Below the pieces are notes generated by a model that searched no databases, was not told where the DNA came from, and was given only the letters and a program-made list of their open reading frames with translations. Positions 13,690 to 64,000 of a stretch of DNA of 64,000 bases are shown piece after piece; the first letter of the stretch is position 1; every line of letters begins with the position of its first letter. A program made the position numbers and the translations under genes. Source of the stretch: a virus (Duplodnaviria; Caudoviricetes); IMG/VR virus record IMGVR_UViG_3300042294_003246, one strand, 5' to 3'.

Positions 13690-14345
13690 TGGATAACGAA
13701 AAAATATTAAAACTATTCAAACATTTTGCAGGTGATCCTTTGGACATACATGGTTTGGTTGTTACACCCGTTAAAGTAGAACCATCTGTTAGAAGAAATG
13801 GTAGAACTAACATGTATTTCAGAGTTCAAAACCCGAATGATGTTTCATATTTTTCACCAATTGTTGGGGATTATATTTATGATGAAACAGAAGACTTTGG
13901 GGATTTTGTAAATGAAAAAATTGATGTGTATTTTGTACCAAACTTTAAACAAGGAATTTATTTAAATGAAGAATTAAAATCAAGAATTCAAAAAGTGTTT
14001 AATTCCGTTAAAGAGATTAATTTTACATTAGGAACTCCTTTTATTGGTTATGAAAGATACAAATTATTTATTGAATCAGTTGGTGTATCAACAAGTTATT
14101 GGGATAATGAAAGTTTTGGTTTATACAATAATGTGAAAGTAGTAAGAGCCGAAAAAGATGGTGAGTGGTGGGATCCTAAAGTTGTTGTAAGTGAATATCT
14201 TAATGACTTTCTACCTGACAAAGAAAGTTACTGGGAAACAGAAAATCTTTACCCCCAAATTGACAACATCTTAAACAATTATCCCCTATTTAGGGATCCA
14301 TACGGCAACAATTTAGGTTACTACGATACCAAGTTTATCCAATAA
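13689..14345 (+). CDS. Hypothetical protein
   Basis: 218-aa ORF translationally coupled (TAATG) to the lysozyme gene. Confidence 0.65.
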   Translation: MDNEKILKLFKHFAGDPLDIHGLVVTPVKVEPSVRRNGRTNMYFRVQNPNDVSYFSPIVGDYIYDETEDFGDFVNEKIDVYFVPNFKQGIYLNEELKSRIQKVFNSVKEINFTLGTPFIGYERYKLFIESVGVSTSYWDNESFGLYNNVKVVRAEKDGEWWDPKVVVSEYLNDFLPDKESYWETENLYPQIDNILNNYPLFRDPYGNNLGYYDTKFIQ

Positions 14346-15609
14346 CTTTTTTTGATCTTTTTTTACGGTGAAAAGAAATCACAAATCTGTGAACTTCATT
14401 TTGAACTTCAGCAAGCAAAAATCCAAACTCATTTCGTGGAATATCAAATGACGACCCGTCAGTCAAGTGGATTGTTTGAGATTGGTGTTTGTCGTTTTTG
14501 GAAATAGAAATCAAATCAATACGAGATAACAAACCAAGAGATTCAAATACTTGTTTTGCAACACCCAACTGACCTTTACCACCATCAATAACAACAAGTG
14601 AAGGTAACTCTTGTTTTTCGTTCAAAAGTCTTGTAAAACGACGAGAAAGAACTTCAGTGAATGAAGCGTAGTCATCAGGACCCTCAACAGTTTTGATGTT
14701 AAACTTACGGTAGTTTGACTTATCAGTTTTACCATTCTTGTAACGAACAAGAGCAGACACTTGACAGTCACCACTAGTGTGAGAATTGTCAAACGCCTCA
14801 ATCAAAGTAGGAACATTGATAAGACCCAAAGATTCTTTAAACTGACGAGCAACATCATTATACTTTCTAACACGAAAAGGTTCAAGTTTCTTTTGAAGTG
14901 AATCAACAACAGAGATTTTAGTTTTGAACTCTTGAGCTTTCTCAAACTCCATAGAATCAGAAAAATATTTCATAGACTTTTTCAAACGACTACGAACCTT
15001 GTCAAACTCAAAAGAAAATACTTCTTTCATCTCACTTACAATCTTCTTGTAGGAGAACTTTAGAATGTTTGAAATACAAGGTGCATTACAACGACCAAGA
15101 TGAAACTCCAAACAAGTTTTGAACTTTTCGTTTGAAATGTTTTCTTCAGTCAAGTTGTAAGAACAAGAACGAAGATTGAAGATGTCGTGAACCATTTCAT
15201 AGATCTCATAACAAGAGTTGGAACTTGTAGACTCAAGAAGGATCTGACCTGAAAAGTTAGAAGGATTACAAACTTGTAAACGAGGGAACTCCTCATCACT
15301 CAAAGTAATAAACCAACGACGAGATCTGTCGTCTTTTGCTTTGATGTTGTATTTTGGTTTCAAAGACTTGATAAGTTCGTCCTCCAACAAAAGAGCCTGT
15401 GACTCATCGTTAGTAGTCATGAACTCAACATCACGGATCTCACTCACAAGAGAAGTAGTCTTGATATCCTTGTGATTTTTTTGAAAGTAAGACTTCACTC
15501 GTTTCGGTAAAAACTTTGACTTACCCACATAGATGATCTGACCCTTCTCATTTTTGAAAAGGTAACAACCACTTGATTGGGGAATGTTTGAAAGTTTCTC
15601 TGTAATCAC
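14335..15609 (-). CDS. uvrC: Excinuclease ABC subunit C, lacking the C-terminal HhH domain
   Basis: GIY-YIG (GCYLF...IYVGKS), CLEFHLGRCNAPC, UVR coil, RNaseH-like IEAFDNSH...YRKFNIK...DGGKGQL...EVHRF; likely GTG start at 15609 behind TATATTTG (15614-15621). Confidence 0.92.
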   Translation of the reverse strand: MITEKLSNIPQSSGCYLFKNEKGQIIYVGKSKFLPKRVKSYFQKNHKDIKTTSLVSEIRDVEFMTTNDESQALLLEDELIKSLKPKYNIKAKDDRSRRWFITLSDEEFPRLQVCNPSNFSGQILLESTSSNSCYEIYEMVHDIFNLRSCSYNLTEENISNEKFKTCLEFHLGRCNAPCISNILKFSYKKIVSEMKEVFSFEFDKVRSRLKKSMKYFSDSMEFEKAQEFKTKISVVDSLQKKLEPFRVRKYNDVARQFKESLGLINVPTLIEAFDNSHTSGDCQVSALVRYKNGKTDKSNYRKFNIKTVEGPDDYASFTEVLSRRFTRLLNEKQELPSLVVIDGGKGQLGVAKQVFESLGLLSRIDLISISKNDKHQSQTIHLTDGSSFDIPRNEFGFLLAEVQNEVHRFVISFHRKKRSKKVIG

Positions 15610-15704
15610 AATACAAATATAGTGAAAATCTTTCAAATAATAACATAAACATCATAAACTTTCATTGGCCCAAACCTAATTATTTTTTTGTCGTATTTAT
15701 GTGT

Positions 15705-18319: not shown

Positions 18320-18637
18320 ATGTTAAGACATCAAAACCCAATTCAAATTAAAGCGACAACAACAGGATTTGCTTCACCAGCAGAAACCTATGTTGATAAA
18401 AGGTTAGATCTAAACGACTTAATTGTTAAAGATCATTATACAACATTTTATTTTAAGTATTCAGGACCAAGTGTGTTTGGAATTAACCAAGGAGATACAA
18501 TTGTAATTGACCGAACTGAGGATCCAAAAGATGGGGATTTGGTAGTTTTAACAGAAAAAACACACTTCAAACTTAGAGAATACAAAGGACAAAAAAACTT
18601 ATGGGGAAAAGTAACATGGATATTAAAGAAAATGTAA
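18320..18637 (+). CDS. umuD: UmuD-like (S24 family) protein
   Basis: GFASPAETYVDKRLDLNDL...SGPSV...GDTIVIDR...DGDLVV; directly upstream of umuC. Confidence 0.85.
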   Translation: MLRHQNPIQIKATTTGFASPAETYVDKRLDLNDLIVKDHYTTFYFKYSGPSVFGINQGDTIVIDRTEDPKDGDLVVLTEKTHFKLREYKGQKNLWGKVTWILKKM

Positions 18638-19833
18638 GAAAGATTGGAATTATTGACTGTAACAACTTTTATGTTAGTTGTGAACGGTTATTTAACCCTG
18701 AGTCAATTGGAAGACCTACCGTTGTATTATCAAACAACGACGGATGTGTGATTGCCAGATCTCAAGAAGCAAAAGATCTTGGAATTAAAATGGGTGAACC
18801 ATTTTTCAAGAGCCGTGAGTTCATGGACCAACATAGATTTTGCGTCTATTCATCAAATTATAACTTGTATGGTGATATCTCAGATCGGGTTATGAAAGTG
18901 ATTGGTGAGTTTGGAAATGACATTGAAGTGTATTCTATTGATGAAGCTTTTGTTGATTTTTCAAACATTCCTCTTGAAGATCTAACAGAAACATTATTGG
19001 GAATCAAAGAAGAAGTAAGAAAGAAAGTTGGAATCCCTGTATCTATCGGTGTTGGTCCGAACAAAACCTTAGCTAAACTAACATCTTATTTAGCTAAACA
19101 ACAGCTAAACTATAATGGTGTGTGTTCATACTGGGACTTACCAAACTTTAGAAATATTTGTTATGGAATTGATGTAGATGAAGTTTGGGGTATTGGTAGA
19201 AAATGGGCAAAAAAATTAAAAAACATCGGTGTTGAATCGGTAGGTCAGTTTATTAACACAAACGAATATACTGTTAGAAAGTTGATGAATATCAATGGTG
19301 TAAAAACACAATTGGAGTTAACAGAGATGTATTGTTTTCCAATTCAAAAAAAATCCAAACCAAAGAAGAATATCGCTTCCACTCGTTCATTTGGAAAAGA
19401 TGTACAGGACTTTGATCAATTGGGTGAAGCGATGTATACCTACATTAAAAACGGTGTAAAAAAACTAAGTCAAAACAAATTGTTTGCAAATAAGGCAACC
19501 ATATTTGTTTCAGGAAACTATCATAAAGGAGATAAGTATCACCATTCTAAAACAATCAAACTACAAACCCCAACAAGAGATCCCGATCTTATTTGGTCTC
19601 AGATTCATGAACAATACAAAGTTCTTTGTAATAAATCTGAAAAATATAAAAAGTGTGGAATTGTTTTTAATGAACTAACTCCCGACACAATTATTCAAAC
19701 CTCTTTATTCAATGATGAGGTCCAAGTTGTTGAAGCACCACAGAATGAAACTCATGAGTGGGAAATGAGACAAGACTATATTACTCAAAAATATACTACA
19801 TCTTGGGATGAACTCCCTTATGTTTTTGTGTAG
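18601..19833 (+). CDS. umuC: Y-family DNA polymerase V catalytic subunit (start may be ATG 18616)
   Basis: IDCNNFYVSCE, VLSNNDGCVIARS, YSIDEAF, GPNKTLAKL, VWGIGR, STRSFG, YKKCGI, WEMRQ...YTTSW. Confidence 0.93.
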   Translation: MGKSNMDIKENVRKIGIIDCNNFYVSCERLFNPESIGRPTVVLSNNDGCVIARSQEAKDLGIKMGEPFFKSREFMDQHRFCVYSSNYNLYGDISDRVMKVIGEFGNDIEVYSIDEAFVDFSNIPLEDLTETLLGIKEEVRKKVGIPVSIGVGPNKTLAKLTSYLAKQQLNYNGVCSYWDLPNFRNICYGIDVDEVWGIGRKWAKKLKNIGVESVGQFINTNEYTVRKLMNINGVKTQLELTEMYCFPIQKKSKPKKNIASTRSFGKDVQDFDQLGEAMYTYIKNGVKKLSQNKLFANKATIFVSGNYHKGDKYHHSKTIKLQTPTRDPDLIWSQIHEQYKVLCNKSEKYKKCGIVFNELTPDTIIQTSLFNDEVQVVEAPQNETHEWEMRQDYITQKYTTSWDELPYVFV

Positions 19834-44453: not shown

Positions 44454-46904
44454 ATGAAACACATTTTATTTTTATTTTTATTCCCCCTTTTTATTTATTC
44501 TCAGTATTGTCCTTATATTGGACCTGACTTAACTTTACCTTGTGGTGTAAACTCAACAACGTTAACTGCTGATCCATCACAATGTGGTCAAGGAGCCCTT
44601 CCTCAAGGAACCTCTAATTACGGAGTTACTAACATACCTTATGTTGTACAAGTTAATAACGGAACATTGGTACAACTTAGTGATGATTCACAATCTAATA
44701 CGTTTAATATTGGGTTTACTTTTTGTTTTTACGGTTCTAATTATACACAGTTTCGTATAGGATCAAATGGATGGATTTCGTTGGGTGCTGGAGTTCAACC
44801 AGCCACTTTTGCCACTCAAGCAATACCTTCAGCAAATGCCGCAGTTCCCAAAAATTGTATTATGGGTCCGTGGCAAGATTGGAATCCAAGTTTAGGGGGT
44901 CAAATTAGATATCAAGTACAAGGAACTGCCCCTTGTCGTAAATTAGTAGTCAGTTGGATAGGTGTTCCTATGTTTTCTTGTACAAACCTTCAGGGAACTT
45001 TTCATATTATTCTTTACGAATCAACTAACGTGATTGAAAATCATATTGCAAATAAACCCGCATGTAATCAATGGGCAGGAGGAACCGCAGTTCAGGGTAT
45101 TCACAACCTTTTAGGAAATGCGGCAGTTCCTGTTGCAGGTAGAAACTCAACACAATGGACCACTGTTAACAATGCTTATCGTTGGACGCCAAGTGGAGGT
45201 GTAATTCAGCCAACATGGACTTGGTATCAGGTTGGAAACCCTAACCCAATTGGTACGGGATTGAGTATTACTGTTACTCCTCCAATCGGAGGAGCTTATT
45301 ATACCTGCCAACCAGTGTTCCCTTCTTGTAATGCTGGTTGGTCCTCTTGTAACGCAGGAGTTGGACAAGGTCCTGATACAATTTTAGTAACACCAACACC
45401 AAATTTACCACCTCCCACAATTACTCCAACAGATCCTTTGTGTAATAATGGTTGTAATGGATCAATAGTTGTAACTCCTGTTGGCGGATTAGGTCCTTAT
45501 ATTATCAATTGGTCTAATGGGTCAAACACTCTAACATTAAATAATTTGTGTTCAGGGACATATAATTTCTCTTTGACCGATGCAAATGGGTGTGTATATA
45601 ACGGAACTTCAACTTTATTAAACCCACCACCATTACAATTACCAACAGTAACGTCAACTAACCCAACTTGTTTTGGTTATTGTGACGGATCATCAATTGT
45701 TAATCCTATAGATGGACTTGCACCATACACATATCTTTGGAATGATGGTCAAACCACTCAAACGGCAACTAATTTATGTTCGGGAAACTATTCTGTGACT
45801 GTTACAGACGCAAATAACTGTCCTGTAACTCAAACCACAACGTTAGTTGATCCTCCACTTGTAACAATTAACCCGATTACAGGATCAGACACAGTTTGTT
45901 TTAACTCTACAGGTAATTTATACAACGTCTCAAGTGTTTTTCCTAACCTAAACTACGTATGGACTAACACGATGGGAAATATCTCGTCAGGACAAGGGAC
46001 AAATCAAATAAATTTGGACGTAACTGGTGTGAATGGGGGTCTATATTCCAATACTTTATCAGTTATTGGTGTAAATCAAGTTGGATGTCAGTCACAACCT
46101 CAAACTTTTTCTATTGTTGTATTGAATATACTACCTGTAATTACACCTATCGGTCCGTTTTGTGAATATGACAACTGTATTAACTTAATTGCAACCCCAC
46201 CTAATGGAATTTTCAGTGGATTAAACGTTTGGGGTAATCAATATTGTCCTGACAATGGGTTTATTGGGTTAGATTTTGTAAATTATATGTATTCTCAGTC
46301 AGGATGTTGGTTTGATACGTCAATTAACGTTCAAGTTTATCCACGACCTAACATTTTACCTGTGACAAATGGTGTTGTTGATGAGAATTTAGAGTATCAT
46401 CAAATATGTGAGGGTGATACTGTATCAGATGTGTTTAGTTTATCATCAGTTAGTGGTGGATATAACGAATGGTATGTGTTTGGGGATACAATTACTAACA
46501 ATACGTTAAATATAACGTGGGATATGGACGGTATATTCACTTTTCAGGGAGTAAGATGGGACAATGGGTGTGTTTCTAACCCCCAATCCTTCACCATAAC
46601 CTTAGAATTGTGTCCAAATGAGATATTTTACATCCCAAATGCCTTTACACCCGATGGTGATGAAAGAAATAACATATTAAAACCAATAATCACCTCAGGA
46701 GTGGACATTTTTAACTACTCTTTTGTGGTTTTTAATAGGTGGGGACAGATTGTATGGGAATCTTTTAATACCAATGTGGGTTGGGATGGGACATATAACA
46801 ATATTCCTTGTCAAGATGGGGTTTATACGTGGAAATTAAAATTTAAAAGTCCCAAAACCGATGAAATCAAAGAATTTTACGGTAGTTTTACGCTTATTAA
46901 GTAA
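44454..46904 (+). CDS. T9SS type B-sorted adhesin-like protein (SprB repeats, PKD-like, gliding-motility CTD)
   Basis: Signal peptide; two SprB-like repeats (LCNNGCNG, TCFGYCDG...TVTDANNC); GQGTNQI; C-terminal YIPNAFTPDGDERNN...FNRWG...WDGTY...DGVYTW...GSFTLIK. Confidence 0.88.
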   Translation: MKHILFLFLFPLFIYSQYCPYIGPDLTLPCGVNSTTLTADPSQCGQGALPQGTSNYGVTNIPYVVQVNNGTLVQLSDDSQSNTFNIGFTFCFYGSNYTQFRIGSNGWISLGAGVQPATFATQAIPSANAAVPKNCIMGPWQDWNPSLGGQIRYQVQGTAPCRKLVVSWIGVPMFSCTNLQGTFHIILYESTNVIENHIANKPACNQWAGGTAVQGIHNLLGNAAVPVAGRNSTQWTTVNNAYRWTPSGGVIQPTWTWYQVGNPNPIGTGLSITVTPPIGGAYYTCQPVFPSCNAGWSSCNAGVGQGPDTILVTPTPNLPPPTITPTDPLCNNGCNGSIVVTPVGGLGPYIINWSNGSNTLTLNNLCSGTYNFSLTDANGCVYNGTSTLLNPPPLQLPTVTSTNPTCFGYCDGSSIVNPIDGLAPYTYLWNDGQTTQTATNLCSGNYSVTVTDANNCPVTQTTTLVDPPLVTINPITGSDTVCFNSTGNLYNVSSVFPNLNYVWTNTMGNISSGQGTNQINLDVTGVNGGLYSNTLSVIGVNQVGCQSQPQTFSIVVLNILPVITPIGPFCEYDNCINLIATPPNGIFSGLNVWGNQYCPDNGFIGLDFVNYMYSQSGCWFDTSINVQVYPRPNILPVTNGVVDENLEYHQICEGDTVSDVFSLSSVSGGYNEWYVFGDTITNNTLNITWDMDGIFTFQGVRWDNGCVSNPQSFTITLELCPNEIFYIPNAFTPDGDERNNILKPIITSGVDIFNYSFVVFNRWGQIVWESFNTNVGWDGTYNNIPCQDGVYTWKLKFKSPKTDEIKEFYGSFTLIK

Positions 46905-59050: not shown

Positions 59051-59431
59051 ATGAAAACAATTTTTATTACTCTTTTATTTTTTACCTTCATTGGTTATTC
59101 TCAACCTTTGATGAGACAATATTCAAATATGGATTATCAGTCAATTGCGGAATCCAACTTTAAAAAAATAACCTTTAAACCAAAAAATGATTATGTTTAT
59201 AAACTTGATTATGGACAATTCCAATTGTCGGTAAGCACCAAATTAAAAAGGGTTCCCTTCCAGGATAAATTCTCTGATCTAACCGTGGACGATATTTTAT
59301 TTGCAGGTTCTTACGACATAAGGGCAAGATTTTACATATCTCCAAATGTTAAGGTGTTTCAACGAGCCTTTATCACAGGATTAAGTAATGGTCAAGTTTT
59401 TCATACGACAGGAGTTATAATAAAATTTTAG
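59051..59431 (+). CDS. Secreted hypothetical protein
   Basis: Signal peptide MKTIFITLLFFTFIGYS; C-terminal F after a beta-strand pattern. Confidence 0.55.
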   Translation: MKTIFITLLFFTFIGYSQPLMRQYSNMDYQSIAESNFKKITFKPKNDYVYKLDYGQFQLSVSTKLKRVPFQDKFSDLTVDDILFAGSYDIRARFYISPNVKVFQRAFITGLSNGQVFHTTGVIIKF

Positions 59432-59438
59432 AAAAAAA

Positions 59439-59469
59439 CTTGTCAATTAAAAAAAGATTACTATATTTG
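59439..59469 (+). promoter_or_regulatory. Host-type promoter of tRNA operon 1
   Basis: CTTG-N19-TATATTTG. Confidence 0.7.
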
Positions 59470-59515
59470 TAAAGAAATTGAAACTTTTTAAAAAAACGAT
59501 ATAATTATAATAAAA

Positions 59516-59620
59516 ATGAAAAATACACTCAAACATATGGTCAATTGTCTACCGAGCAATCAGTGGTCGTTTAGCTATATTACGCGAAATCAGTCGAGGG
59601 TATTTTCACTTATGAGTTAA
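59516..59620 (+). CDS. Putative attenuator leader peptide 1 (34 aa)
   Basis: MKNTLKHMVNCLPSNQWSFSYITRNQSRVFSLMS, between promoter and terminator; rich in GC-ending codons unusual for this genome. Confidence 0.6.
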   Translation: MKNTLKHMVNCLPSNQWSFSYITRNQSRVFSLMS

Positions 59621-59651
59621 AAACGTTTAACTAACATAATAAAAGGAATGT

Positions 59652-59688
59652 AAAACCCGAGACTTAAAAATCTCGGGTTTTTTGTTTT
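59652..59688 (+). terminator. Attenuator-type intrinsic terminator before tRNA operon 1
   Basis: AAAACCCGAGA-CTTAAAAA-TCTCGGGTTTTTTGTTTT. Confidence 0.8.
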
Positions 59689-59693
59689 ATATT

Positions 59694-59766
59694 GGCTCTG
59701 TAAGCATTGATGGCGATGCGTCTGACTTGTAATCAGAAGAAATCAGTTCGAATCTGGTACGGAGCT
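59694..59766 (+). tRNA. tRNA-Thr(UGU)
   Basis: GCTCTGT/ACGGAGC acceptor, TCTGA-CTTGTAA-TCAGA. Confidence 0.8.
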
Positions 59767-59771
59767 CAAAA

Positions 59772-59786
59772 AGGTTCTTTGACATA
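59772..59786 (+). promoter_or_regulatory. boxA-like antitermination element
   Basis: AGGTTCTTTGACATA, identical at 62789-62803; GTTCTTTGA also at 57727 and 63490. Confidence 0.65.
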
Positions 59787-59800
59787 TTGGTTTCATAAAT

Positions 59801-59871
59801 TGTCTCGTAGCCTAAAGGCAGGGCACCGGATTTTGACTCCGGGTGTGTTGGTTCGAGTCCAGCCGAGACAA
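59801..59871 (+). tRNA. tRNA-Gln(UUG)
   Basis: TGTCTCG/CGAGACA acceptor, CCGGA-TTTTGAC-TCCGG. Confidence 0.88.
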
Positions 59872-59878
59872 CGATAAT

Positions 59879-59965
59879 GGAAGAGTAATCACAACGGCTT
59901 GTGACTCCGTCTTGAAAACGGCAGGTACTGAAAGGTATGGGGATCGACACCTCACTCTTCCTCCA
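59879..59965 (+). tRNA. tRNA-Ser(UGA), atypical (ATCGACA T-loop, U73, encoded CCA)
   Basis: GGAAGAG/CTCTTCC acceptor, loop CTTGAAA, long variable arm. Confidence 0.75.
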
Positions 59966-59968
59966 TAT

Positions 59969-60041
59969 AGGGTAGTTGACTAATTGGTAAGTCACCACGT
60001 TTGGGACGTGGACGATGCAAGTTCGAGTCTTGTCTACCCTA
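59969..60041 (+). tRNA. tRNA-Pro(UGG)
   Basis: AGGGTAG/CTACCCT acceptor, CCACG-TTTGGGA-CGTGG. Confidence 0.88.
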
Positions 60042-60101
60042 CTATAAATAAACAAATAAAAAAACAAGTATCATGGAAAGTGACAAGTATGACAAACAAA
60101 A

Positions 60102-60174
60102 CCCCTCGTAGCTTAATCGGGAAAGCACCATACTTTTAATATGGGGAGAGTCGGATCGTAACCGGCCGGGGGGA
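60102..60174 (+). tRNA. tRNA-Lys(UUU), ATCGTAA T-loop
   Basis: CCCCTCG/CGGGGGG acceptor, CCATA-CTTTTAA-TATGG. Confidence 0.8.
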
Positions 60175-60246
60175 CAAAAAAAATTTAGTAAAACTGAGCG
60201 TTCATTACCAAAAAGTGGTTACTTTTGTTCTGAAAAACTAAAACAA

Positions 60247-60320
60247 GCACCTTTAGCTCAGCAGGTAGTAGCGGTTGTTTTACATACAACAGGTCACAGG
60301 TTCGATCCCTGTAGGGTGCA
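60247..60320 (+). tRNA. tRNA-Val(UAC)
   Basis: GCACCTT/AGGGTGC acceptor, GTTGT-TTTACAT-ACAAC. Confidence 0.88.
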
Positions 60321-60383
60321 CGAGGAGACTGTTACTAATTCATAGACCTTATGTGGACGACGGTATCATAGAATTAGATTTTT

Positions 60384-60464
60384 GGGAGAGTTGAGCAATT
60401 GGTTGGCTCAGCAGACTGTAAATCTGTCGCGAAAGCCTTGGGGGTTCGAGTCCCTCCTCTCCCA
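60384..60464 (+). tRNA. tRNA-Tyr(GUA)
   Basis: GGGAGAG/CTCTCCC acceptor, loop CTGTAAA, long variable arm. Confidence 0.9.
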
Positions 60465-60468
60465 CACT

Positions 60469-60540
60469 GGACTGGTAGCTCAGAGGCAGAGCAAAACCCT
60501 GTTAAGGTTGAGGTCGAGATATCGTAATTCTCCCAGTCCG
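60469..60540 (+). tRNA. tRNA-Asn(GUU), ATCGTAA T-loop
   Basis: GGACTGG/CCAGTCC acceptor, loop CTGTTAA, G73. Confidence 0.82.
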
Positions 60541-60550
60541 CAAAAAACTA

Positions 60551-60627
60551 CGGCACATATACCCTCCGTCTGATACGCGGTTGAAAGGTTAATAGGTCCC
60601 ATGTAGGTTCGATTCCTACTGTGCCGA
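60551..60627 (+). tRNA. tRNA-Ile(GAU)-like, D-armless with extended variable region
   Basis: CGGCACA/TGTGCCG acceptor, perfect T arm, CCGT-CTGATAC-GCGG; only 8 nt where the D arm belongs. Confidence 0.6.
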
Positions 60628-60631
60628 CTAC

Positions 60632-60715
60632 GGAAGATAAACCTTGATGGAGATAGGGTCCGCCTGCTAAGCGAGATGTACCTTCGGGTATTTGGTTCGA
60701 TTCCAATGTCTTCCG
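60632..60715 (+). tRNA. tRNA-Ser(GCU)
   Basis: GGAAGAT/GTCTTCC acceptor, loop CTGCTAA, long variable arm, G73. Confidence 0.8.
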
Positions 60716-60740
60716 CAACTTATGACAAAAAATAATTCAT

Positions 60741-61094
60741 ATGAATGACAGATATAAAAAAATAGATGAAAAATCAAAAATAGTTACAGATGGATTGGGT
60801 TGTAAAATTGACGATGGTATAAGAGAGTTAATTGTTTTACTTAATTATAATAACATCGGAACAACACAATCTTGTTGGGGACACAAAAATTGGGGTGAAA
60901 AATTTCCTTGGTTTGACATTAAGAATGAATATCATAAGAATATAGAAAACATTATTTTTGATTTAGAAATTGAATTTGAGAAACTTGGTGATGATACAAT
61001 AAGATTTTACCCAAAGTGTAAAAAATTGATAAAGGGTAGAAAAGAGTTTAACAAGTTAAAAGACAAACTAAAACAAATTAGTAATTTTTTATAA
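60741..61094 (+). CDS. Hypothetical protein inside the tRNA operon
   Basis: 117-aa ORF; TTQSCWGH motif. Confidence 0.6.
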   Translation: MNDRYKKIDEKSKIVTDGLGCKIDDGIRELIVLLNYNNIGTTQSCWGHKNWGEKFPWFDIKNEYHKNIENIIFDLEIEFEKLGDDTIRFYPKCKKLIKGRKEFNKLKDKLKQISNFL

Positions 61095-61097
61095 TCT

Positions 61098-61167
61098 GCC
61101 GATAGGAAAGGTTTCCGGTCCGGGCTCATATCCTGGATGTCATTTGGTTCGATACCCTTTATCGGTA
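61098..61167 (+). tRNA. tRNA(CAU) (Met or Ile2), atypical/degenerate
   Basis: GCCGATA/TATCGGT acceptor, TCCGGG-CTCATAT-CCTGGA; T stem only partly paired. Confidence 0.55.
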
Positions 61168-61173
61168 CTACAT

Positions 61174-61247
61174 GGTGTATGTAGCTCAGTTGGCAGAGTG
61201 CTTGATTGTGGGTCAAGAGGTCATGGGTTCGACCCCCATCATACACA
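61174..61247 (+). tRNA. tRNA-His(GUG)
   Basis: G-1, GTGTATG/CATACAC acceptor, CTTGA-TTGTGGG-TCAAG; discriminator A. Confidence 0.88.
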
Positions 61248-61253
61248 CAAAAT

Positions 61254-61326
61254 ACCTTCGTAGTTCAATTGAAAAGAACCTGTGACTACGGATCACAAGA
61301 TGGGAGTTTGAGTCTCTCCGAAGGTA
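61254..61326 (+). tRNA. tRNA-Arg(ACG)
   Basis: ACCTTCG/CGAAGGT acceptor, TGTGA-CTACGGA-TCACA. Confidence 0.88.
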
Positions 61327-61334
61327 CAATATTT

Positions 61335-61409
61335 GCGTCGTAGCTTATGGAAGCGGCAGGCCTCCAAAACCTCGCATAGACATGGGTTCGATTCCCTGAC
61401 GACGCGCCA
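61335..61409 (+). tRNA. tRNA-Trp(CCA), atypical
   Basis: GCGTCG/CGACGC acceptor, loop CTCCAAA, 4-nt D loop, G73-CCA. Confidence 0.65.
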
Positions 61410-61414
61410 AATAA

Positions 61415-61487
61415 GGACCGGTAGCTCAGTTGGTAGAGCGCTAGACTGAAGATCTAGGCGTGGATGGTTCGATTCCGTCCCGGTCCA
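61415..61487 (+). tRNA. tRNA-Phe(GAA)
   Basis: GGACCGG/CCGGTCC acceptor, CTAGA-CTGAAGA-TCTAG. Confidence 0.92.
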
Positions 61488-61510
61488 CAAACAATTAAAA
61501 AGGAGATAAA

Positions 61511-61966
61511 ATGAACCGAGTATTTAGAAAGGTTGATGGAAATCCAGTTTCTGACATATCAAAACACACTTTGGATATTTTAAATGAATGTCCTTATGTT
61601 GAAATTCATGTTGGAACTGATTCTCAAAACCACAGAAGATCGACTGTATATGTAACCGCAATAGCATATCGGTATGGAAACCGCGGAGTTCACTATATAT
61701 ATCACAAACATAAGGTTAAAAAAATTCGTGATAAGTGGACAAGGTTATGGAATGAAGCCGATTATTCAATTGAGGTTGCAAACTTTTTAACAAGTAAGGT
61801 GAATGTTAAACTTGAGATTGATCTTGATTATAACGCTCAAGAACAACACTTTAGTTCAAAGTTGGTTGGTCCTGCGGTTGGGTGGGTTAATTCTTTGGGT
61901 TATAAGGCGAATATTAAACCTGATAACCAAATTGCAACAAAGGCGGCAGATTTTCATTGTCGTTAA
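61511..61966 (+). CDS. RNase H-like YkuK (DUF458) family protein
   Basis: HVGTDSQ, RLWNEADYSIEVA, EIDLDYN, KAAD; has an AAGGAG Shine-Dalgarno site, rare in this window. Confidence 0.8.
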   Translation: MNRVFRKVDGNPVSDISKHTLDILNECPYVEIHVGTDSQNHRRSTVYVTAIAYRYGNRGVHYIYHKHKVKKIRDKWTRLWNEADYSIEVANFLTSKVNVKLEIDLDYNAQEQHFSSKLVGPAVGWVNSLGYKANIKPDNQIATKAADFHCR

Positions 61967-61968
61967 TT

Positions 61969-62040
61969 GGTCGGGTGTCTGATAGGTAAAGTCCAGATCT
62001 GCAAAATCTCGGTATGTGGGTTCGAATCCCACCCTGACCT
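61969..62040 (+). tRNA. tRNA-Cys(GCA)
   Basis: GGTCGGG/CCTGACC acceptor, loop CTGCAAA, U73. Confidence 0.9.
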
Positions 62041-62048
62041 CAACAAAT

Positions 62049-62122
62049 GCCCCTATGGCGGAATTGGCATACGCATGTGATTTAGGATCACAATTTTGCA
62101 GGTTCGAGTCCTGCTGGGGGCA
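62049..62122 (+). tRNA. tRNA-Leu(UAG) with short variable loop
   Basis: GCCCCTA/TGGGGGC acceptor, TGTGA-TTTAGGA-TCACA, 5-nt variable region. Confidence 0.85.
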
Positions 62123-62194
62123 CAAAAAATAGTATATATACTAAATTTTAGATTTTTTCTAAAATAATAACTTTTTGATCTCATATTTATTAAT

Positions 62195-62584
62195 ATGAAA
62201 AAAATAATAAGAATTACAGAATCTGATTTGACTAACATAGTTAAACGAGTGATTAAAGAAAATGAAAATAATAGATTAGGTAAAGTTTATTTCAATAACG
62301 AGAATTATCCTGGATTTATGTATGTTAAAGAAATATTACCTAAATATCAAATGTATTGGGTTGGGACTATGACAAATGAAGTATTACCTACTGAATTAAT
62401 AAAAGATGATGATATGGATATCTATTGGTTAGAATCACCCGATGGTAAAACATTTGGTTACGAACTTTTTGAAGATGATTTAAAAGGTAAAAAATATTTA
62501 GTTTTAGATTTAGTTGACCCACAAGAAATTGAGAAATATCTAAGAAATGGCGGTGAATGGTTCCCAAGTCACTACGAGGCGTAA
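62195..62584 (+). CDS. MKKIIRITESDL leader family protein
   Basis: MKKIIRITESDLTNIVKRVIKEN; TATTTAT at 62184-62190. Confidence 0.75.
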   Translation: MKKIIRITESDLTNIVKRVIKENENNRLGKVYFNNENYPGFMYVKEILPKYQMYWVGTMTNEVLPTELIKDDDMDIYWLESPDGKTFGYELFEDDLKGKKYLVLDLVDPQEIEKYLRNGGEWFPSHYEA

Positions 62585-62606
62585 ATTAAAAAAATAATCC
62601 ATAAAA

Positions 62607-62639
62607 CTTGACACTTTCAAAAAGTATCATATATTTATA
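62607..62639 (+). promoter_or_regulatory. Composite promoter of tRNA operon 2
   Basis: CTTG-N19-TATATTTA, also containing TATTTATA (62632-62639). Confidence 0.6.
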
Positions 62640-62662
62640 ACTACAAAACTTAAAAAACGCAA

Positions 62663-62731
62663 ATGAAAAATTTACACATATCATTGTTAGGGGGCGATTT
62701 AGCTGAGGCAACTTTCAAGGAGAGGGTGTAA
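62663..62731 (+). CDS. Putative attenuator leader peptide 2 (22 aa)
   Basis: MKNLHISLLGGDLAEATFKERV; Leu codons TTA, TTG, TTA, TTA; directly upstream of terminator and tRNA-Leu(UAA). Confidence 0.6.
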   Translation: MKNLHISLLGGDLAEATFKERV

Positions 62732-62754
62732 TATTTTATACATATAATATTTAG

Positions 62755-62788
62755 AACCCCTCCCCAAAAAGAGGGGTTTTTTTGTTTT
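62755..62788 (+). terminator. Attenuator-type intrinsic terminator before tRNA operon 2
   Basis: AACCCCTC-CCCAAAAA-GAGGGGTT then TTTTTGTTTT. Confidence 0.8.
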
Positions 62789-62814
62789 AGGTTCTTTGAC
62801 ATAATGGTAATAAT

Positions 62815-62899
62815 GGTTCGGTGGTGGAATTGGCGATACACGACAGGTTTAAGCCCTGTTTCCCATTGAGGATTGTGGGTTCGAGTCCCACCCGGACTA
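62815..62899 (+). tRNA. tRNA-Leu(UAA)
   Basis: GGTTCGG/CCGGACT acceptor, ACAGG-TTTAAGC-CCTGT, long variable arm. Confidence 0.88.
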
Positions 62900-62903
62900 C
62901 AAT

Positions 62904-63000
62904 GAAAACACAAAACTTTGGTTCCCACACAGCGGTGAGACGGGCTAAGTTAGATACAATTTCTCGGGGCTGGGAGTAGGAAGCCAAAGAGTGTGTTTTT
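62904..63000 (+). ncRNA. Unidentified structured RNA candidate
   Basis: Closing helices AAAACACA/TGTGTTTT and CTTTGG-TTCC/GGAA-CCAAAG; inner CAGC/GCTG and GAGA/TCTC. Confidence 0.35.
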
Positions 63001-63004
63001 TTTA

Positions 63005-63055
63005 AAAATATTTTACAAAGTGTTTGGCAGATCAAAATAATCTACATATATTTGT
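63005..63055 (+). repeat. 51-bp promoter repeat, copy 1
   Basis: Near-identical to 63380-63430; contains TTTG (63023-26)-N20-TATATTTG (63047-54). Confidence 0.8.
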
Positions 63056-63071
63056 AGAAACAATAAAACAT

Positions 63072-63410
63072 ATGGGAACTTACATTTACACTTACAAGAA
63101 AAAATTAGATAAGAAGGCAACTCTTGATGGACAAGAAGTTATTGTTGGTGAAGCTACTTTTTTATGTAAACAAGATTGGTCAGGAAATTACACACCACAA
63201 GAAAAACGTGAAATGACAAGAGCTACATGTTTACTTGAAAACGATCAACCGGATTATATTACATTCGGTGAAGAAGTTTATAAAAATAATAAGCGTGGTA
63301 TTTGGACTGATGGTAGCGGTTTTTGGACCGGAATCGATTACAAAAAAGACTATGTTGGAAAGTTAGAAAAAATTGGTAGAAAATATTTTATAAAGTGTTT
63401 GGCAAATTAA
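63072..63410 (+). CDS. Hypothetical protein
   Basis: Start ATG 63072 behind the host promoter; C-terminus runs through repeat copy 2. Confidence 0.65.
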   Translation: MGTYIYTYKKKLDKKATLDGQEVIVGEATFLCKQDWSGNYTPQEKREMTRATCLLENDQPDYITFGEEVYKNNKRGIWTDGSGFWTGIDYKKDYVGKLEKIGRKYFIKCLAN

Positions 63411-63430
63411 AATAAACTTCTTATATTTGT
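63380..63430 (+). repeat. 51-bp promoter repeat, copy 2
   Basis: TTTG (63398-401)-N20-TATATTTG (63422-29). Confidence 0.8.
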
Positions 63431-63610
63431 CAAACAAACGGGGGTGAGAAAATGTGATGGTGGACTCACCCCCACACAAAAGGAAGAAAGTTCTTTGATT
63501 TAAGATATTGTGGTTGTAAGCAAGGGGAAACTCGTAAAGTTCATTAACCAGTTGGCTCAAGATGGTGAAACGAGAGTGTGAGTCAACTACTAAATCACAA
63601 ATAAAATATT

Positions 63611-63743
63611 GTCAGGTGGGCGTAATGAGGGATGGTACCCGAGTCCCCAAGACCAATAGTCCCCGACACTTGGGGGTTCTATGGAGTCGTAAGGTTGTCT
63701 ATCCCGTCTAGAACGGTATCCGGTTCGAGTCCGGCCCTGACTA
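63611..63743 (+). ncRNA. Expanded tRNA-like RNA 1 (~133 nt)
   Basis: GTCAGG/CCTGAC acceptor-like stem, CCGG-TTCGAGT-CCGG T arm, internal 11-bp helix. Confidence 0.55.
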
Positions 63744-63749
63744 ACAAAC

Positions 63750-63890
63750 AGGCAAATGGCGGAAGAAGAGTTAACCATACTCGTGGCAGACGTTAAGGTA
63801 TATTTCCCGTAAGAAGTTAACCGAGGCATAGCTGGGAATGTCTATTGAAAATAGATCTATGTCGTACAGGTTCGAGTCCTGTTTTGCCTA
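63750..63890 (+). ncRNA. Expanded tRNA-like RNA 2 (~141 nt), GAA anticodon-like loop
   Basis: AGGCAAA/TTTGCCT acceptor, ACAGG-TTCGAGT-CCTGT T arm, GTCTA-TTGAAAA-TAGAT arm, two insertions. Confidence 0.6.
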
Positions 63891-63897
63891 CAAATAT

Positions 63898-63980
63898 CGC
63901 GGGATAGTAAGTAGTTGGTAGCTGGCGAGGCTCATAACCTCGTGTCTTTGACCCCGGTGGTTCGAGCCCACCTCCCGCAA
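63898..63980 (+). tRNA. Initiator tRNA-fMet(CAU) with enlarged variable region
   Basis: C1-A72 mismatch (CGCGGGA/TCCCGCA), CGAGG-CTCATAA-CCTCG, ~13-nt variable region. Confidence 0.8.
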
Positions 63981-64000
63981 CACAATTTGGTTTGGTAGTC

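Follow-up and report, generated by a model that had tools for sequence, protein, structure and literature searches.

The second of two short leader ORFs in the tRNA region of a 64,000-nucleotide stretch of DNA from a giant phage (the whole of the stretch that was analysed, termed the window here) appears to belong to a ribosome-mediated transcription attenuator of the leader-peptide type that gates a block of phage tRNA genes. The probability attached to this reading is about 0.65, because translation of the ORF and the stalling-driven switch between helices are inferred rather than seen directly; the reach of control along the array is inferred as well. If the reading is correct, the phage probably makes these tRNAs only when ribosomes decode the matching codons slowly. 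The evidence comes from the arrangement of the module, from helices that are conserved and covary among related loci, and from a partition of codons between the two leaders that follows the order of the tRNA genes.

The phage, its host and its tRNA array

At ~30% G+C the window is phage-like, and its sequence is found in lake-water metagenomes. The host is most likely a member of the Bacteroidota, because the promoters resemble the Bacteroidota type and because one protein (44454-46904) combines SprB repeats with a PKD-like domain and a type IX secretion signal of the CHU_C family. The nearest match to this protein in the phage collection is encoded by a 635-kb uncultured phage (50% identity), and a search of the same collection with the window gave matches at the tRNA level only. 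Two further phage-encoded proteins are a UvrC-like nuclease with a GIY-YIG domain and a UvrC RNase H domain (14335-15636, - strand) and a Y-family (ImpB/UmuC) polymerase (18601-19833, + strand).

The tRNA array extends from 57.7 kb to the end of the window, with small ORFs scattered throughout. ARAGORN finds 17 tRNA genes in it, and several aberrant tRNA-like genes beyond these were recognised by homology (Table 1). Among the latter are an Ile(GAU)-like gene with an aberrant D-arm (Rfam 28.9 bits), a Ser(GCU)-like gene with a weak match to tRNA-Sec, a Met-like gene and a Thr-like gene with an insertion, as well as two tRNA-like stretches without assigned identity. Inside the array, between tRNA-Phe and tRNA-Cys, lies an RNase H-like gene (61511-61966; PF04308, E 1e-25), which keeps this position in many related loci. 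Relatives of the window were collected with this gene as the query, yielding 67 IMG/VR loci on contigs of up to 304 kb. Homologs of leader 2 are present in 41 of the 67 loci, at 70-93% DNA identity, and homologs of leader 1, the companion ORF upstream, in a similar number.

Architecture of the leader 2 module

The promoter, the 22-codon ORF with its predicted peptide, the terminator, the boxA-like motif and tRNA-Leu(UAA) are all found where the sequence-only reading had placed them (Table 1). The promoter-like site continues as TATATTTATAA, and in the alignment the block CTTGACACTTTT...TATATTTATAA is kept in nearly all homologs. The exception is L043/L044, where the upstream region has been replaced; in L043:7149-7289, and likewise in L044, the frame runs 22 codons further upstream, and the leader of these two loci may be the tail of a longer ORF. 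No Shine-Dalgarno sequence is present at the leader 2 element. All four Leu codons of the ORF are TTA or TTG, as had been noted from the sequence. The terminator hairpin has a 10-bp stem with 5 G-C pairs and an 8-nt loop (-14.9 kcal/mol), is kept in all homologs and stands 35 nt 5' of tRNA-Leu. Only two strong terminators occur on the + strand in the 56-64 kb region, each of them directly behind a leader ORF.

Table 1. Features of the leader 2 module, the companion leader and the tRNA-like genes missed by ARAGORN (window coordinates)
Feature	Position	Strand	Details
Promoter-like site of the leader transcript	62608-62635	+	TTGACA, 16 nt, TATATT; 11/12 matches (consensus scan)
Leader 2 ORF	62663-62731	+	22 codons, stop TAA
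Putative sensing codons 4-15	62672-62707	+	Leu His Ile Ser Leu Leu Gly Gly Asp Leu Ala Glu
Predicted antiterminator 5' strand GGAGAGGGT	62719-62727	+	Inside codons 19-22; pairs with 62756-62763
Intrinsic terminator hairpin	62753-62780	+	5' arm 62753-62762, loop 62763-70, 3' arm 62771-80
Terminator U-tract	62777-62788	+	Sequence and terminator scan
boxA-like motif GTTCTTTGA	62791-62799	+	Directly behind the attenuator
tRNA-Leu(UAA)	62815-62900	+	ARAGORN; Rfam tRNA 49 bits; first gene behind the attenuator
Leader 1 ORF (companion)	59516-59620	+	34 codons; terminator 59652-59681
tRNA-like genes missed by ARAGORN	60551-60627, 60632-60716, 61097-61168, 63784-63891, 59880-59965, 63620-63745		Homology

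In the proposed mechanism, transcription would start ~20 nt before the ORF, and a ribosome would translate the ORF while RNA polymerase advances. A ribosome that quickly reached the stop codon would cover the last codons, GGAGAGGGT, so that the terminator would form and transcription would stop before tRNA-Leu(UAA). If the ribosome were instead slow at codons 4-15, GGAGAGGGT would be free to pair with the 5' arm of the terminator, no terminator would form, and the polymerase would continue past the boxA-like site into the tRNA array. The codons sensed would be those for UUR Leu, AUA Ile, Gly, Asp, Ala and Glu, whose cognate tRNAs are encoded downstream, so that the circuit would amount to demand-driven feedback on tRNA supply. 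Leader 1 would exert the same control for the other 16 amino acids. The spacing of the parts suits such a scheme: the antiterminator strand ends 1 nt 5' of the stop codon, and the putative regulatory codons 4-14 lie at least 15 nt further upstream. The limits of the sensing window were derived from the size of a ribosome footprint, which also underlies the masking geometry.

Mutually exclusive helices

The pairing proposed from the sequence, between GGAGAGGGT (62719-62727) and ACCCCTCC (62756-62763), comprises 8 bp and one bulged A, and it recurs among the relatives. In the MFE structures of transcripts cut before the 3' arm, the 5' arm of the terminator is paired to the final ~9 nt of the ORF for 30 of 30 homologs, the partner positions being -10 to 0 relative to the stop codon and up to +7 in a few homologs. 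With RNAalifold, the antiterminator is the only consensus helix of the cut transcripts, and 3 of its 8 pairs have changed in both partners, one example being U-A in 16 sequences versus G-C in 12. In alignment A2, 96.7% of the antiterminator cells are paired, as compared with 90.4% in shuffles; the observed pairing or covariation score was reached in 0 of 500 shuffles, and 44-68% were paired in a control in which the partners were slid by 1-3 columns. An imperfect antiterminator is found in L036, L022 and L028.

The same column of the 5' arm covaries, once full-length sequences are aligned, with the 3' arm of the terminator too (A-U in 16 sequences versus C-G in 12). Because this column covaries both with the ORF end and with the 3' arm, the three segments change together, which is as expected of mutually exclusive helices. 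The attenuator geometry put forward earlier therefore holds in the sense that the helix between the ORF end and the 5' arm is conserved, with compensatory changes. The comparison of folding energies that had been proposed shows the two helices to be of similar stability: in the window, the antiterminator hairpin has -13.8 kcal/mol and the terminator -14.9 kcal/mol, and the means over the homologs are -14.5 and -15.9 kcal/mol, respectively.

The consensus folds contain no conserved anti-antiterminator (1:2) hairpin and no pause hairpin upstream. An anti-antiterminator is typical of trp-type leaders, and the mechanism can do without one; because it is missing here, the default outcome without translation would be read-through. 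A 5'-3' helix between codons 4-7 and the stop-codon region was considered and rejected, its registers differing between length classes and no fold supporting it.

Codons of the two leaders and tRNAs of the array

The amino acids of leader 1 are exactly the 16 whose tRNAs lie between the two leaders, a match that counts the Ser(GCU)-like, Met-like and Ile(GAU)-like genes missed by ARAGORN. The chance that 33 codons lack Ala, Asp, Glu and Gly is 1.1e-4, and leader 1 is the sole one of the 73 ATG-ORFs of 30-40 codons in the window that lacks these four and holds at least 15 distinct amino acids. Leader 1 is open in 32 of 32 distinct homologs; Asp and Glu are absent from almost all of them, Gly from 26 and Ala from 11. 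Its antiterminator is MFE-predicted in only ~15 of the 32.

The division between the leaders extends to synonymous codon families. Genes for tRNA-Leu(UAG) and Ile(GAU) are located between the leaders, and those for Leu(UAA) and Ile(UAU) behind leader 2. Across homologs, the Leu codons of leader 1 are CTN in 59 cases versus TTR in 2, and those of leader 2 CTN in 2 versus TTR in 105; for Ile, the counts are 55 ATY versus 1 ATA in leader 1, and 17 ATY versus 54 ATA in leader 2. With operon-2 codons defined as TTR, ATA, GGN, GAY, GAR and GCN, the window has 0 of 33 in leader 1 versus 12 of 21 in leader 2 (Fisher 8.6e-7), and the means over homologs are 2.7% and 54.5%, against a phage background of 31.8%. 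Ten of the 12 putative sensing codons fall in families read by tRNAs that are found only downstream of leader 2 (background 0.318, P=3.6e-4); the His and Ser codons of the block have no partner tRNA downstream. The tRNA genes are arranged likewise in the 25 distinct loci that extend at least 3 kb downstream of leader 2: tRNA genes for Glu (21 loci), Gly(tcc) (19), Asp (17), Leu(UAA) (17), Met (16), Ile(UAU) (11) and Ala(UGC) (3) follow it, and in none of the 25 do tRNAs for Gly, Glu, Asp, Leu(UAA) or Ile(UAU) precede it. The proposal that leader 2 complements leader 1 is thus borne out, for codons and for tRNA genes alike. Most leader 2 codons occur only once or twice, with no long runs as in the his and phe leaders, so the sensitivity to any single tRNA is uncertain.

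Two independent lineages fit the same rule relating leader codons to tRNAs. In L057, which has no leader 2, a single 47-codon leader (L057:2898-3041) uses all 20 amino acids (chance 0.017), with both Leu codon families and both Ile codon classes, and precedes one array with tRNAs for all 20 amino acids. In L058, L059 and L061, a 28-codon leader (L058:2262-2348) stands before a block of eight tRNAs, for Thr, Gly, Ser, Leu(UAG), Leu(UAA), Arg(UCU), Met and Ile(UAU), and 15 of its first 20 codons are read by those eight (P=1e-4). The last codons of the L058 leader, CAGGATCCAG, pair with the terminator arm CTGGATCC; this GGATCC-based antiterminator is unrelated in sequence to that of leader 2 and equals it in geometry and place.

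These data bear on the alternative that the attenuator reports general translation capacity, in the form of ribosome availability or initiation on the leader, with the codon match being secondary. Such a sensor would have the same architecture as one of tRNA supply, would be served by codons that mostly appear just once or twice, and would draw on the fact that an untranslated leader alone, without a conserved anti-antiterminator, should read through. However, a codon-blind device needs neither the partition of Leu and Ile codons, which mirrors the anticodons on either side of leader 2, nor the agreement of leader composition with tRNA content in L057 and L058, and this alternative is considered unlikely.

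Conservation of the leader 2 reading frame

The leader 2 frame is open in 30 of 30 distinct homologs, and both other frames contain stops in all 30. The homologs have 22 or 24 codons, the two length classes differing by two separate 3-nt indels, and the stop codon, TAA or TGA, is unchanged in position. Among the 30 homologs the three codon positions vary equally and more differences are nonsynonymous than synonymous, so there is no sign of protein-like selection on the peptide; the codon pattern fits a leader ORF encoding a peptide without a function in itself. Codons 16-18, the most variable ones, separate the conserved block of codons 4-15 from the last four codons, which are constrained at the RNA level. 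Codons 1-5 are identical in all 30 homologs, synonymous sites included, and codons 1-6 never vary in the 22-codon class. Codon matching alone leaves the invariant first five codons unexplained.

The invariance of the first 14 nt of the ORF, again at synonymous sites as well, and the equal variation at the three codon positions are what might be expected of an RNA switch that works without translation, in response to a protein, a tRNA or another ligand, and in which the open frame is a by-product of constraints on the RNA. A by-product of this kind is hard to reconcile with a frame that is open in 30/30 homologs of leader 2 and 32/32 of leader 1, with indels that stay in frame, a fixed stop codon and closed alternative frames, or with amino-acid and codon sets that match the tRNAs. 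In addition, the leader is only ~110 nt long and matches neither the T-box nor any other Rfam family at leader 2, and a translation-independent switch is accordingly judged very improbable.

A still less probable alternative is that the region is simply a micro-gene with a promoter and terminator of its own, or that the terminator insulates an upstream gene, the complementarity at the ORF end being incidental. In the close relative L001, the leader ORF has been lost and the same terminator, kept alone, closes a protein gene, and some relatives carry a further promoter behind the terminator. Against a functional peptide stands the excess of nonsynonymous over synonymous differences, and against incidental complementarity stand the three-way covariation of ORF end, 5' arm and 3' arm and the recurrence of the same geometry with unrelated sequence in L058; the terminator, moreover, is placed between the promoter and the tRNA genes. 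Least probable of all is a nascent arrest peptide, Met-Lys-Asn-Leu-His-Ile, with stalling dependent on the peptide rather than on tRNA supply: the fixed codons 1-6 of the 22-codon class and 1-5 of all 30 homologs would suit it, but leader 1, L057 and L058 share the architecture with different N-termini, and the partition of codons and tRNAs would be left unexplained.

Possible reach of control along the array

Between tRNA-Leu(UAA) and the distal tRNAs (Met, Ile, Gly and Glu) are a hairpin RNA (62900-63000), an ORF (63072-63410) and promoters at 63024-52 and 63399-427. Because the ORF and the two promoters lie 5' of the distal tRNAs, these are not solely dependent on leader 2, which in the window may directly gate only tRNA-Leu(UAA). 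Read-through transcripts may nevertheless run far down the array, as is suggested by the boxA-like motif behind the attenuator and by the scarcity of later terminators in relatives: in 17 of 29 loci, no strong terminator-like hairpin other than that of the attenuator occurs over the 1.5-5 kb that reach to the last tRNA downstream.

The tRNAs that follow the window can be read from contig L068, which overlaps its last 314 nt at 99% identity and extends the phage. Contigs L068 and L069 came from a scan of metagenomes; the viral_contigs set has no exact match to the end of the window. Genes for Ile(UAU), Gly(UCC) and Glu(UUC) lie within 1 kb beyond base 64000, and neither tRNA-Asp nor tRNA-Ala was found in the 7 kb downstream on L068. 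The sequence-only reading had predicted tRNAs for Gly, Asp, Ala and Glu beyond base 64000; for this phage it was right about Gly and Glu, and the 7 kb of L068 do not bear it out for Asp and Ala. It had also taken the closing bases of the window, GGTTTGGTAGTC, for the 5' end of a tRNA, which was mistaken: no tRNA is detectable there, and the next one on L068 is ~130 nt further on.

Directly behind tRNA-Glu on L068, where relatives carry tRNA-Asp, is a gene of 301 aa on the strand opposite to the tRNAs (L068:5631-6536), whose product combines a DUF559/Vsr-like endonuclease fold with an HTH. The gene may have entered as a homing-type insertion and displaced tRNA-Asp in this phage. In L026, L030, L041, L042 and L060, a hairpin with a T-run (-11 to -12 kcal/mol) is found after tRNA-Glu, 6-7 nt before tRNA-Asp.

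The RNA at 62900-63000 is ~95 nt long and forms a long irregular hairpin closed beside a U-run (-28.7 kcal/mol, z -2.4). It is conserved, at varying places, in more than 25 related loci, has no match in Rfam, and shows the highest RNA-contig depth of the examined stretch in one metatranscriptome. Among the contigs of four metatranscriptomes, some cover the leaders and bridge the terminators (59528-59722, 62733-62892 and 62734-62810). The intervening ORFs include stretches with no coverage, to which no weight is given. Being assembled contigs from which strand, ends and levels cannot be read, and one of which includes promoter DNA, these records are no more than compatible with transcription.

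The boxA-like motif

The motif behind the attenuator, GTTCTTTGA, occurs 6 times in the window versus 1.29 expected, with 4 copies on the + strand in the tRNA region. The 12-mer GTTCTTTGAMAT has ~100 occurrences among 53 related loci, all of them on the strand of the tRNAs. In sequence, GTTCTTTGA/GTTCTTTGACAT resembles the boxA consensus and is regarded as a candidate NusB/NusE site. The 14-mer TGTTCTTTGACATA is present on at least 120 genome contigs across many phyla; among 120 such hits, none lies within 1.5 kb upstream of a 16S start. A further module (63399-63610) consists of a promoter, a GC hairpin (63435-63470), GTTCTTTGA at 63490 and a conserved RNA of ~100 nt. The module stands at the head of the distal tRNA block, and more than 50 related loci have it, the ones lacking leader 2 included.

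What an attenuated tRNA block would mean

The reasons for which phages carry tRNA genes, and the times at which these genes are used, are a matter of debate; among the proposals are that they compensate for codon usage, that they replace host tRNAs as the host pool decays, and that they help to evade defences that cleave tRNA. If the present reading is true, the phage gauges how fast each codon is decoded and makes tRNAs as they are needed, and the debate becomes open to direct experiment, in which single tRNAs are supplied or withheld and termination is the readout. The leader would also offer a small, naturally occurring sensor for how available particular tRNAs are. A broader proposition, with odds only a little better than even, is that giant phages of Bacteroidota use leader ORFs as codon samplers that mirror the anticodons of the block, such that a shortage of any cognate tRNA would switch the block on. 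Possible causes of such a shortage are the load of AT-rich late genes, a host tRNA pool that decays, and anticodon nucleases of the host.

Comparison with known systems

No account of tRNA genes controlled by leader-peptide attenuation was found in full-text literature searches, and leader 2, if the reading is true, would be the first case known in which this kind of attenuation controls them. The closest parallels are the leaders of amino-acid operons such as ilvGMEDA, ilvBN and thr (also trpL, hisL, pheL and leuL), which share with leader 2 a short promoter-proximal ORF, a terminator before the regulated genes and an alternative helix on the 5' arm of the terminator, chosen by ribosome position. 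In the multivalent leaders, as proposed here, one leader senses several amino acids. The differences are in target and design. Amino-acid operon leaders regulate biosynthetic enzymes, whereas leader 2 would regulate tRNAs, and the codons of the phage leaders, unlike those of the amino-acid leaders, correspond to the operon's anticodons even at the level of synonymous families (UUR/CUN, AUA/AUY). Leader 2 further differs in having three segments with no conserved 1:2 hairpin, in having regulatory codons that are dispersed rather than in long runs, and, as compared with enterobacterial leaders, in its occurrence in a Bacteroidota phage without a Shine-Dalgarno sequence. No Rfam leader family matches at leader 2; membership of leader 1 in Thr_leader was rejected, as the match (59608-59687) scores 33.2 bits against a threshold of 55 and covers the leader 1 terminator only.

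A component of the translation apparatus is under leader-peptide control by cognate-codon decoding in the pheST (pheM) attenuator of E. coli. There the target is an aminoacyl-tRNA synthetase and one amino acid is sensed; in leader 2 the targets would be tRNA genes and the codons many.

T-box riboswitches likewise tie a terminator/antiterminator switch to tRNA status in front of translation-related genes. However, T-boxes bind uncharged tRNA directly, without translation, and are 200-300 nt long with a specifier loop and a T-box sequence, whereas leader 2 keeps a conserved ORF; in 59400-64000, no T-box match was obtained in Rfam at the gathering threshold or at E<=1.

The boxA/Nus antitermination of rrn operons is comparable in that the candidate boxA GTTCTTTGA likewise stands near the 5' end of operons of untranslated RNA, and the GC hairpin before the boxA-like site at 63435-63498 recalls the boxB that precedes boxA in rrn leaders. 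In contrast to the rrn arrangement, the phage motif stands downstream of an attenuator.

The class of mechanism is classical, and the proposed tRNA target and the codon-mirroring design are new. If the present reading is true, classical leader-peptide attenuation extends to a new class of target genes and to the phages of Bacteroidota.
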